Part shown: one piece after another, positions 25,100 to 27,246 of the stretch
Position numbering within the stretch: position 1 is the stretch's first letter
How the letters are laid out: each line of letters begins with the position of its first letter
Origin: a plasmid
Reading direction: 5' to 3' (one strand)
DNA: 64,000 nt
Assembly (NCBI RefSeq): GCF_058153355.1
Contig: NZ_JBLWLY010000002.1
Position numbers and translations under genes: made by a program
The notes under the pieces: model-generated
The model's database searches: none
The model's input: only the letters and a program-made list of their open reading frames with translations
What the model was told of the DNA's origin: nothing

Positions 25100-25390
25100 G
25101 TGTGCATGCTTGTGGCAATCTTGCTGCATCTGCCAATGCAATTCTGGATGAGTTTTCTTTTATTGTTGCTGCAAGATTGCATAAAGCTTGCAGCTTTTAT
25201 TATTGTTAATGTGACACAAGTATTCGGCTGTCAATTCCAGCACTCTTCTGAATAGCAAGATTAAATCTTGCTGCTAGATTTTTGATAGTTGTAATCTTGC
25301 TGCAAGCTGCTATCTTGTTCTGGAAGAGTTATTTTACCTAACCTCAACCTGGTTTATATTGATGTTTGCTGCAAGATAGCAGCAAGTAAA
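25100..25390. repeat. Centromere-like repeat array upstream of parA (parC1-like)
   Basis: At least eight copies of ttgctgcaagat and its complement in both orientations. Confidence 0.55.
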
Positions 25391-25399
25391 GGAGGCTAA

Positions 25400-26032
25400 A
25401 TGGCCTGGATAGTTGGTTTTATTTCCCAGAAAGGTGGTGTGGGTAAAAGCACTAAAGCGAGAGCGTTAGCGCGTGAAGCATCCGCCTGTGGCATCAAAAC
25501 AAAATTAGCTGATCTCGACTTGGAACAGGCAACGAGTGCTGAGTGGCATCGTCGACGTCTGTCAGCTGGTTTGCCACCGGTTGCTTCAGTTGAAGTGTCT
25601 TCAACAGCAAAGCAGGCGATAGAATCTGCCGGCGATTTTGACCTTCTGATTCTTGATGGCCCAGCTCGTGCAAGCAAAGGGACTTCAGAAATTGCTAAGG
25701 TCGCCGACCTTATCGTCCAGCCAACGGGGGCCTCCCTTGACGATCTTGTCCCGGCCATTAAAGTTTTCAACGCGCTGGTAAAAGAAGGTGTACCACGTTC
25801 AAAACTGGTCTTTGCTTTAAGCCGGGTAGGTACCGAAGCGGAAGAGCTGGATGCTCGTGCATATATCAGTGAAGCAGGTTATGAAACTTTATCTGGATGC
25901 CTTTTTGAGAAGCCAGCATACAGAAAAGCGATGAATTCAGGACTCGCAGTGACAGAAACACGTTATAAAGGTTTAAACGAGAGAGCTGATGAACTTATCC
26001 AAGCACTCATCGATAAGATTGGAGAAGAGTAA
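25400..26032 (+). CDS. parA: Type Ib partition ATPase ParA
   Basis: 210 aa; Walker A KGGVGKST at N-terminus. Confidence 0.85.
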   Translation: MAWIVGFISQKGGVGKSTKARALAREASACGIKTKLADLDLEQATSAEWHRRRLSAGLPPVASVEVSSTAKQAIESAGDFDLLILDGPARASKGTSEIAKVADLIVQPTGASLDDLVPAIKVFNALVKEGVPRSKLVFALSRVGTEAEELDARAYISEAGYETLSGCLFEKPAYRKAMNSGLAVTETRYKGLNERADELIQALIDKIGEE

Positions 26033-26406
26033 TGGCTGATGCATCAAAACTTAAAACTAAAAGGACCCGTGGTGGGCTGGGGGTACCCCCGGGCCCCGAC
26101 GAAGTGGCTACCAGCCTGAATGCGCCTGAAATAGCTCCGGCTGTCGCTGCCACTGATGTTCAGAGACAACAGGCAGACTCATCGCCAGTGCACCATGAGC
26201 CTGTGGTTACGCAAACAGTGACCGAGGCATATACCCGCCGCGATGGCCGTTCTGCCAGAAAGACAAACAGGACGCTGGCATTTGCAACACGTGTCACACC
26301 TGCTTTCGACCAAGAGATCCGGGATATCGCAGAGCGTGAGGGGTTGAAACTGGTGGAAGTTCTGGAAAAAGCAGTTGAGGCATATAAGGAAAAACAGGGC
26401 TATTAA
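26032..26406 (+). CDS. parB: Small partition DNA-binding protein (ParB/ParG-like, C-terminal RHH)
   Basis: 124 aa; 1-nt overlap with parA. Confidence 0.7.
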   Translation: MADASKLKTKRTRGGLGVPPGPDEVATSLNAPEIAPAVAATDVQRQQADSSPVHHEPVVTQTVTEAYTRRDGRSARKTNRTLAFATRVTPAFDQEIRDIAEREGLKLVEVLEKAVEAYKEKQGY

Positions 26407-26409
26407 TCC

Positions 26410-26500
26410 GGGATGCAGCAATCTTGCTGCATTCTTTTTTTTGTGCAATCTTGCAGCAAGAATCATGCTAGATAAATGCTAGATTGCTGCAAGATAAATG
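26410..26500. repeat. Second centromere-like array downstream of parB (parC2-like)
   Basis: Further copies of the same repeat. Confidence 0.5.
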
Positions 26501-26504
26501 ATAT

Positions 26505-26632
26505 GGTACTCAAATTGAGTAGTTAACTGCCCCCGTGAAGTACGCAGTTTGAGTACTTACCTGTGGTTTATGAACGTATTTACTTAATGTGAGTAGTTAT
26601 TGGGCGAAGATGAACACTCAAATTGAGTATAA
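26505..26632. repeat. Type II partition centromere-like repeats upstream of parM
   Basis: Four copies of ctcaaattgagta-like repeat. Confidence 0.5.
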
Positions 26633-26643
26633 ATGGAGATGGT

Positions 26644-27246
26644 ATGAAAATTTTTTGCGATGATGGTTCTACAAATGTGAAACTTGCCTGGTTTGAAGGC
26701 AAGACGCTGAAAAGTGCGGTATCAGTGAACTCTTTTCGCCATAACTGGAAAGTCGAGGGCTTAGGCAGCAGTCGTACCTATAACTATCTGCTTGATGGCC
26801 GTAAATATACCTACGACCCGGTCAGCGAAGATGCGATCAGCACGACTCATATTGAGTATCAGTACTCTGATACAAATGTGTTGGCAGTTCACCACGCATT
26901 ACTGAACAGTGGAATTGAACCCCAGGAGATCGATCTCACCGTTACGTTACCTATCAGCGAGTTTTACACGGCCGACTGCCAGAAAAATACGCTTAACATT
27001 GAGAGAAAAATTCGCAACCTGATGCGGGAAGTCACCCTGAACAAAGGGGGAACTTTTACCATTAAAAGCGTTGAAGTGATGCCTGAATCACTCCCGGCTG
27101 TATTTACTCGCCTAGTTGCTGACAATGTTGGTCAGTACGAAAAATCATTGGTTATCGATCTCGGTGGTACAACTCTGGATGTTAACTGCATTATCAAGAC
27201 AATTTCCCCGGCGAGACATACTCTGGACTATACCGCTATCCTTTAA
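26644..27246 (+). pseudogene. stbA: Actin-like partition ATPase ParM/StbA, 3'-truncated at IS junction; no ParR gene follows
   Basis: N-terminus MKIFCDDGSTNVKL resembles ParM; homology stops near residue 180. Confidence 0.75.

Follow-up and report, generated by a model that had tools for sequence, protein, structure and literature searches.

A plasmid partition locus was analysed at positions 25,100-27,246 of a 64,000-nucleotide stretch of plasmid DNA (contig NZ_JBLWLY010000002.1 of assembly GCF_058153355.1), which is referred to at its full length as the window. The locus very probably comprises an intact type Ib partition cassette, in which the genes parA and parB are flanked on both sides by repeat arrays, located beside a RepFIA replicon and followed by the dead remnant of a ParMRC (type II) system. 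The elements of the cassette are the following (window coordinates; aa, amino acids; bp, base pairs):

25113-25320: candidate ParB sites of the distal upstream array, where ATCTTGCWGCA-type units in either orientation form five clusters (cluster positions about 25113-25130, 25163-25196, 25252-25280 and 25290-25320)
25333-25360, + strand: promoter-like site for parAB, TTTACC-16-TATATT, from a consensus scan
25364-25388: proximal site TTGCTGCAAGATAGCAGCAAG, with the promoter-like site on one side and the Shine-Dalgarno sequence on the other, candidate autorepression operator
25389-25395: strong Shine-Dalgarno sequence AAGGAGG of parA
25400-26032, + strand: parA, encoding a deviant Walker-A ATPase of 210 aa
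26032-26406, + strand: parB, encoding a candidate centromere-binding protein of 124 aa
26410-26445, + strand: perfect palindrome TGCAGCAATCTTGCTGCA (two repeat units) followed by T8, terminator-like hairpin and/or first downstream candidate ParB site
26444-26497: candidate ParB sites of the downstream array, with units at 26448, 26452, 26481 and 26485 as well as GCTAGAT variants

The two open reading frames (ORFs) were found exactly as claimed in a first-pass annotation, which had been made from the sequence alone; the stop codon of parA and the start codon of parB share one base (TAATG). ParA is a ParF-like deviant Walker ATPase. It carries the Walker A motif KGGVGKS at residues 11-17 and lacks the helix-turn-helix (HTH) extension at the N-terminus that is typical of type Ia proteins, and its length falls within the range of the small type Ib Walker ATPases (about 200-230 aa). 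It matches the Pfam families CbiA and MipZ, and the NCBIfam model ParA_partition over its full length, with a score of 96 bits that is under the cutoff of 180. The best relative in the PDB was ParF of TP228 (E=1e-6, residues 4-188 aligned); TP228 ParA was also among the best.

With ParB, sequence and profile searches found nothing in Pfam, NCBIfam or the PDB sequences. The protein has 243 homologues, and a small ParA was adjacent to the homologue in every case. An alignment that took in 21 of these homologues revealed an invariant N-terminal peptide (residues 1-36), a variable, low-complexity linker and a conserved C-terminal part of 45 residues. The segment RRDGRSARKT-R...ATR was invariant in the same alignment, and a basic stretch, RRDGRSARKTNR (residues 69-80), precedes a predicted strand. 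The invariance of the strand residues A85, T86 and R87 fits the conserved core of the repeat site. In the AlphaFold model the strand (residues 82-88) is followed by two helices (90-103 and 107-122), the remainder of the chain being disordered; in the monomer model both helices have a predicted local distance difference test (pLDDT) score of about 86. The structural neighbours of the model found with Foldseek were CopG, Arc, SvtR, ParG, CdbA and MatP, all of them ribbon-helix-helix proteins superposing with small root-mean-square deviation. The E-values were weak, which can be ascribed to the tiny size of the ribbon-helix-helix domain.

A ribbon-helix-helix domain folds only as a dimer, therefore residues 70-124 of ParB were modelled twice in a single chain, with a Gly-Ser linker and a matching alignment. 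A strand-helix-helix unit was obtained in each half (predicted template-modelling score 0.57). The top Foldseek match of the dimer model was single-chain Arc (E=0.04, probability 0.98), and the further matches were chains of the F relaxosome, which we take to be TraY, as well as DndE, AvtR, ORF56 and Arc. By these models ParB is predicted to belong to the centromere-binding ribbon-helix-helix proteins of type Ib, with a flexible N-terminal tail. The pairing of a small ParF-like ParA with a ParB whose model shows a ribbon-helix-helix domain preceded by a disordered tail assigns the locus to type Ib, as had been done in the first-pass annotation.

The repeats are concentrated around the operon. 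The motif ATCTTGCWGCA has eight perfect matches in the 64 kb, and all eight lie within the flanks at 25118-25377 or 26421-26495, with degenerate copies adjoining them; the repeat arrays that had been claimed for both sides of the operon were thus substantiated. When up to two mismatches were allowed, the window contained 69 matches vs 41 ± 6 in shuffled sequences. In the 10-kb neighbourhood, 12 of the 13 matches to ATCTWGCWGC with at most one mismatch fell into the 550 bp of the flanks and none into coding sequence (binomial P about 1e-14). Units are found in either orientation and are frequently paired as imperfect palindromes around GCAA-NN-TTGC, as exemplified by TGCAGCAATCTTGCTGCA at 26414-26431.

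The same concentration of the motif in both parAB flanks was found in seven of seven relatives (pEC012-2, pCoo, pKPN-b0b and loci from Salmonella, Erwinia typographi, Morganella and Pseudomonas aeruginosa), in which the identity of ParB to the window protein was 62% for the Salmonella plasmid contig and went down to 46% for the P. aeruginosa plasmid. ParA of the latter plasmid is 62% identical and its repeat unit has drifted to ATCTAGCWGC. In the Erwinia locus the downstream units are present although parMR is lacking, which indicates that these units belong to the parAB cassette. The overlap of the two genes, the repeats in both flanks and their recurrence in the seven relatives are as in a type Ib operon with its arrays, and we infer from the sequences that either array could function as a centromere. 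In pCoo (L009, about 3150-3190) 40 bp that match window positions 25170-25210 are missing and two upstream clusters are gone; the number of upstream sites thus varies between otherwise close plasmids.

The succession of the promoter-like box, the proximal site and the Shine-Dalgarno sequence is the geometry that would be expected for autorepression, the promoter call itself being weak. The proximal site TTGCTGCAAGATAGCAGCAAG is fully kept in pCoo and in the Klebsiella plasmid pKPN-b0b, and the Salmonella relative has a TTGACC box at the position equivalent to the promoter-like site. On the other side of the operon, RNA folding predicted a hairpin after parB (-16.2 kcal/mol, z = -4.2) with an 11-bp stem and T8 behind it. 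Equivalent hairpins made of the repeat motif were present 3' of parB in all four relatives checked, those from Salmonella, Erwinia, Morganella and Pseudomonas (L005 4394-4425, L007 3350-3383, L008 3338-3365 and L010 3318-3345), and a T-run follows the hairpin in three of the five loci, the window included. The first downstream copy of the repeat may be a terminator, a candidate ParB site or both, and the centromere-type palindrome seems to double as the terminator of the operon.

Downstream of the cassette the remnant of the type II system runs into an insertion sequence (IS):

26506-26635: parC-like repeats belonging to the type II system, in which a unit of approximately 21 bp with the core ACTCAAATTGAGTA is present four times
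26644-27182, + strand: parM remnant, codons 1-179 of 324, containing StbA_N only (Pfam E=3e-68)
27183-27246, + strand: read-through portion at the end of the chimeric ORF, V-NCIIKTISPARHTLDYTAIL-stop, from the antisense strand of the IS
27183-28399, - strand: truncated IS3-family, IS150-like element, 1217 of 1420 bp
27846-28352: orfA of the IS
from 27870 down to the break: orfB of the IS
about 28373-28399: remaining terminal repeat of the IS

The repeats with the ACTCAAATTGAGTA core, noticed earlier as a second set preceding parM, are unrelated to the ATCTTGCWGCA family and lie directly upstream of parM; similar units are found upstream of parM also in the pB171-type and Salmonella loci. No convincing sigma-70 promoter of parM was detected in a consensus scan. 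In the intact relatives parM (324 aa) and parR (about 130 aa) are located directly downstream of parAB in the same orientation, and the encoded proteins match R1 ParM (E=4e-82) and the solved pB171 ParR structure 2JD3 (residues 2-129, E=5e-34). Up to the break the ParM stump of the window is 97.8% identical to the intact ParM of pEC012-2. The sequence resembles the relatives as far as 27182 and the IS from 27183 onwards; codon 180 is completed by a base of the IS, after which 20 foreign residues follow before the stop at 27246, to give a chimeric product of 200 aa. The abrupt end of ParM near residue 180 that had been reported previously is thereby placed to the base. Neither parR (best E=1.8), whose absence had also been claimed, nor the 3' half of parM was found anywhere in the 64-kb window by blastn and tblastn. 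The parC repeats of the type II system are present and complete ParM and ParR are absent; lacking ParR and domain II of ParM, the system is to all appearances non-functional here.

The identification of the element at the end of ParM as a truncated IS150-like sequence was borne out. Its OrfB is 56% identical to IS150 InsK over 222 of 283 residues and its OrfA 31% identical to InsJ; the two overlapping frames match HTH_28/HTH_Tnp_1 (orfA) and HTH_21 plus rve (orfB) in Pfam, and full copies of the element are annotated with a programmed frameshift. Missing are 203 bp of the other end, and with them one terminal inverted repeat as well as some 60 codons from the end of orfB. As both parM and the IS are truncated, the junction is a deletion endpoint rather than an insertion. 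No microhomology was detected at 27182/27183, where the three sequences around the break share no bases.

The surviving end of the IS150-like element (28399) abuts an IS66-family element with orf1 at 28419-28838, orf2 at 28835-29185 and a transposase gene starting at 29216 that is apparently split. Escherichia coli plasmid pAST19_1 carries this IS3-family element in full beside an IS66-family element, the junction sequence being different.

The locus was compared with known partition systems. The tandem ParA-ParB-ParM-ParR arrangement on pCoo (NC_007635), pEC012-2, pKPN-b0b and others is the intact version of the window cassette: window positions 22747-27182 are 98.8% identical to pEC012-2 DNA, ParA and ParB each differ by one residue from the pEC012-2 copies, and ParB is 97.6% identical to that of pCoo. 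These tandem cassettes usually adjoin an IncFIA repE gene; the window copy differs from them in the loss of parM codons 180-324 and parR.

As a pB171-type reference p786605_2 (L004) was used, found by means of the solved pB171 ParR sequence; its order is parB (91 aa)-parA (214 aa)-parC1-parM-parR, with the two gene pairs pointing away from parC1. The par2 locus of pB171 has two copies of parC, one on each side of the operon (PMC2441792). The likeness to par2 that had been suggested for the window holds for the two-flank layout of the arrays, for the combination of a small Walker ParA with a small ParB, which in pB171 is described as a ribbon-helix-helix protein, and for the adjacent ParM/ParR system. 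It does not extend to the sequences and the topology: ParA of the window is only 29% identical to the pB171-type ParA, the 124-aa ParB gave no BLASTP alignment with the 91-aa pB171-type ParB (hhalign probability 0.1%), the short units of the pB171 type are ACTTCA/TCATAC in contrast to ATCTTGCWGCA, and the two pB171 systems are divergent and share parC1, whereas parMR of the window type is downstream and co-oriented. Orthology to par2 was rejected on account of the ParA identity, the unalignable ParB, the unrelated repeats and the tandem layout, which leaves the two-flank layout as the only common trait. The alignment to pB171 par1/par2 and R1 parMRC that had been recommended as a check thus yielded a relationship for the type II half, with a ParM stump that is 69% identical to pB171-type ParM and has repeats upstream of it as in R1 parMRC and pB171 par1, and none of par2 orthology for ParA and ParB.

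TP228 ParF/ParG/parH and pSM19035 delta/omega provide another comparison. ParG and omega consist of a flexible N-terminal tail and a C-terminal ribbon-helix-helix domain (PMC3074162), the same layout as in the ParB model; ParF is the nearest solved relative of ParA, and the sites consist of short units that are arrayed in mixed orientation. In contrast to these systems, the similarity to ParF is low, ParB has no sequence similarity to ParG or omega, is longer (124 aa) and has a conserved basic stretch before the strand, and the sites occupy both flanks. R27 also has two partition systems of different types near each other on one plasmid. Its Par1 differs in comprising a large ParA (417 aa) and a ParB-family protein of 335 aa, with the ParM module about 3 kb away on the same strand; R27 Par1/Par2, as a type Ia plus type II combination of a different family, was rejected as a relative. 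Kinship with IncP-6/Rms149 parABC, considered since the Pseudomonas relative combines its ParA (62% identical) and ParB (46% identical) with a ParC-family gene, was also rejected, the protein annotated for partition beside parC of Rms149 being a 66-aa ParG-type protein outside the family of the window ParB. In the P. aeruginosa plasmid pPE52IMP parAB is followed by a gene annotated as 'ParC family partition-associated protein' (L010 3414-3728) and no parMR; the same ParC family accompanies the ParG-type protein on Rms149.

DNA binding, autorepression, ATPase stimulation and partition activity of parAB are inferred by analogy with ParF/ParG, delta/omega and pB171 par2. According to this scheme, ParB would dimerize through its C-terminal ribbon-helix-helix domain and coat the ATCTTGCWGCA-type arrays at 25113-25388 and 26410-26497 to form the partition complex, whereas its conserved disordered N-terminal tail would contact ParA. 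The ATP-bound ParA dimer would ride on the nucleoid, and the plasmid copies would be positioned apart when ParB triggers ATP hydrolysis. Bound at the site that follows the promoter-like boxes and precedes the ribosome-binding site, ParB would repress its own operon, and the palindromic site directly after parB would also end transcription. A deletion in the plasmid lineage is envisaged to have taken away codons 180-324 of parM, the whole of parR and, from the neighbouring IS150-like element, 203 bp, leaving the ParR-site repeats and a presumably non-functional ParM stump.

Several observations weigh against the interpretation of the locus as an intact type Ib cassette. The mean pLDDT of the ParB model is 64, a moderate confidence, the best Foldseek E-value (0.04) is weak, profile comparison of ParB with pB171 ParB and the PDB sequences gave nothing, and the literature that could be searched yielded no experiment on ParB proteins of this family. 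Promoter-like matches are no commoner in the region than in shuffled sequences, and the first downstream site is possibly a terminator only. When the window, pCoo and pKPN-b0b were compared, motif columns were not significantly less variable than spacer columns (23% vs 28%, p=0.37), a test that is confounded by the 40-bp deletion of pCoo covering two sites. Finally, there are other replicons and a second ParA/ParB-type pair on the plasmid, thus the parAB cassette is perhaps not decisive for inheritance.

The role of the downstream repeats can be envisaged differently: only the upstream array would be centromere and operator, and the downstream repeats would serve as terminator of parAB and in the regulation of the parMR promoter, with cross-talk of ParB as at pB171 parC1. 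The hairpin formed by the first downstream unit pair, with its 11-bp stem, its T8 and its equivalents in four relatives, agrees with such a division of labour, and so does the close spacing of the two types of repeats, the last ParB-type unit ending about 12 bp before the first ParR-type repeat. Two to three more units are, however, present past the hairpin (26448-26495), and downstream units occur also in Erwinia, where there is no parMR, and in Pseudomonas, where a parC-family gene follows. This explanation is regarded as rather unlikely. That the junction between parM and the IS could be an assembly artefact, produced by the joining of two repeats, had to be considered because IS elements are a frequent cause of misjoins, and the junction was found in no PLSDB record, in none of 5,426 complete E. 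coli genomes and in no genome of a scan of species representatives. Against this, the exact 200-aa chimeric protein, with the same neighbours, was present in three read-set assemblies from Logan that are independent of each other (SRR31441161, SRR8656992 and a third), and both contigs that were retrieved (L015 and L016) carry window positions 25000-27400 base for base. The recurrence of the chimera shows that the junction is real and marks a real plasmid lineage, and the artefact explanation is effectively refuted.

It is also conceivable, if distinctly improbable, that parAB is an inert passenger, a relic of a cointegrated RepFIA replicon, and that inheritance depends on toxin-antitoxin genes, on the second ParA/ParB-type pair (8645-10566) or on systems located beyond the window. 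The IS-riddled mosaic of the window, which includes IncFII repA, F-type tra genes, Shigella-type effector genes and ccdAB, would be compatible with such an origin, the neighbouring parMR is already gone, and on Shigella pINV deletions of partition systems had little effect on stability (PMC6519299). The state of the cassette speaks for its being intact rather than a relic: both genes are full length and one residue each from their relatives, every site is still there, as are the Shine-Dalgarno sequence and the overlap of the two genes, and the sequence recurs base for base in the two other assemblies that were retrieved. These properties are those of the intact type Ib cassette, which remains the preferred interpretation.

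The cassette sits inside an F-like maintenance block next to the RepFIA replicon, with the following elements upstream of it:

21998-22535: ccdA/ccdB
22536-23240: ResD-type integrase
23750-24553: repE, RepE initiator (Pfam Rep3_N/Rep3_C)
about 24556-24745: iterons of repE, TGTCACA-type

The locus occupies the place where plasmid F would carry sopABC. The integrase ORF (22536-23240) encodes 234 aa vs 261-269 aa in the relatives, and the alignment to pEC012-2 is interrupted within it (22747-22763), which suggests an internal rearrangement; the Logan contig L015 has the same 234-aa form.

The window as a whole is an IS-rich mosaic segment of a virulence plasmid, which contains IncFII repA, F-type tra genes, a chaperone-usher fimbrial operon, Shigella-type effector and regulator genes and ccdAB. 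The ORFs at 4521-5111, 13672-15402 and 17108-17917 were recognised from their translations as presumable ospG, ipaH and virF, and the Shigella sonnei pINV records that match the window list ospD3, ipaH7.8 and ospC1. Two identical, inverted genes for a 391-aa IS110-family transposase (31100-32275 and 45022-46197) bracket the fimbrial operon (about 32414-44929). The traI region (51887-56475) consists of two overlapping ORFs of 645 and 884 aa, and an IS21-family element (49196-50368) apparently cuts traD or is fused to it, with an ORF reading out of the element at 50416. The conjugation system of the window is probably defective.

The IncC/KorB-like operon mentioned in the first-pass annotation could be recognised in the second ParA/ParB-type pair at 8645-10566, which encodes a 296-aa ParA-like ATPase and a 343-aa protein of the ParB/Spo0J/KorB type. 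The latter exceeds the cutoff of TIGR00180 (77 bits, cutoff 58) and matches Spo0J (4e-15) and KorB (1e-8) in the PDB, whereas the ParA-family matches of its 296-aa neighbour are under the cutoffs. Identical, inverted copies of an IS3-family orfB at 5559-6377 (- strand) and 11885-12703 (+ strand) bracket the pair, which may be part of a composite-transposon-like unit.

Loci of this kind are widespread. At least 80% of the parC-parA-parB-parC segment is held by 351 PLSDB plasmids, and at least 460 have a ParB homologue, always annotated as 'hypothetical protein' beside a 'ParA family protein', with the repeat arrays unannotated; the range of the homologues reaches Xanthomonas, Acidovorax, Arsenophonus and Rickettsia. 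The intact tandem cassette is common and occurs on pCoo, on Klebsiella IncFIA plasmids and in Salmonella and Morganella. A 2026 survey listed 971 PLSDB plasmids with a type I ribbon-helix-helix plus a type II system and called the combination previously reported (PMC13245405). The locus is an ordinary, widespread and poorly annotated maintenance module that has undergone a routine IS-associated decay event, and the current understanding of partition mechanisms is left unchanged by it. Mildly new are the recognition of a ParB family that had escaped annotation, the motif of its sites, and a double-par layout in which both systems point the same way.

A more far-reaching suggestion, possible though somewhat doubtful, is that the co-oriented ParAB-ParMRC arrangement constitutes a regulated double locus with a topology unlike that of pB171, in which the palindrome after parB would act as terminator, second centromere and operator of parMR, and ParB would represent an unrecognised ribbon-helix-helix family for which Pfam and NCBIfam have no model. 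If this were true, the ParB family would span plasmids of Enterobacterales, Pseudomonas, Xanthomonas, Acidovorax, Arsenophonus and Rickettsia, and the natural ParMR-deleted derivatives would show that the type Ib half suffices.

The value of the analysis lies mainly in annotation, by assigning a candidate role to the 'hypothetical' ParB of pCoo and of many Klebsiella, E. coli and Salmonella resistance and virulence plasmids. The ATCTTGCWGCA two-flank motif offers a starting point for the prediction of incompatibility caused by partition among IncFIA-type plasmids, and the ParMR-deleted lineage represents a natural experiment on the dispensability of the type II half of the double cassette.

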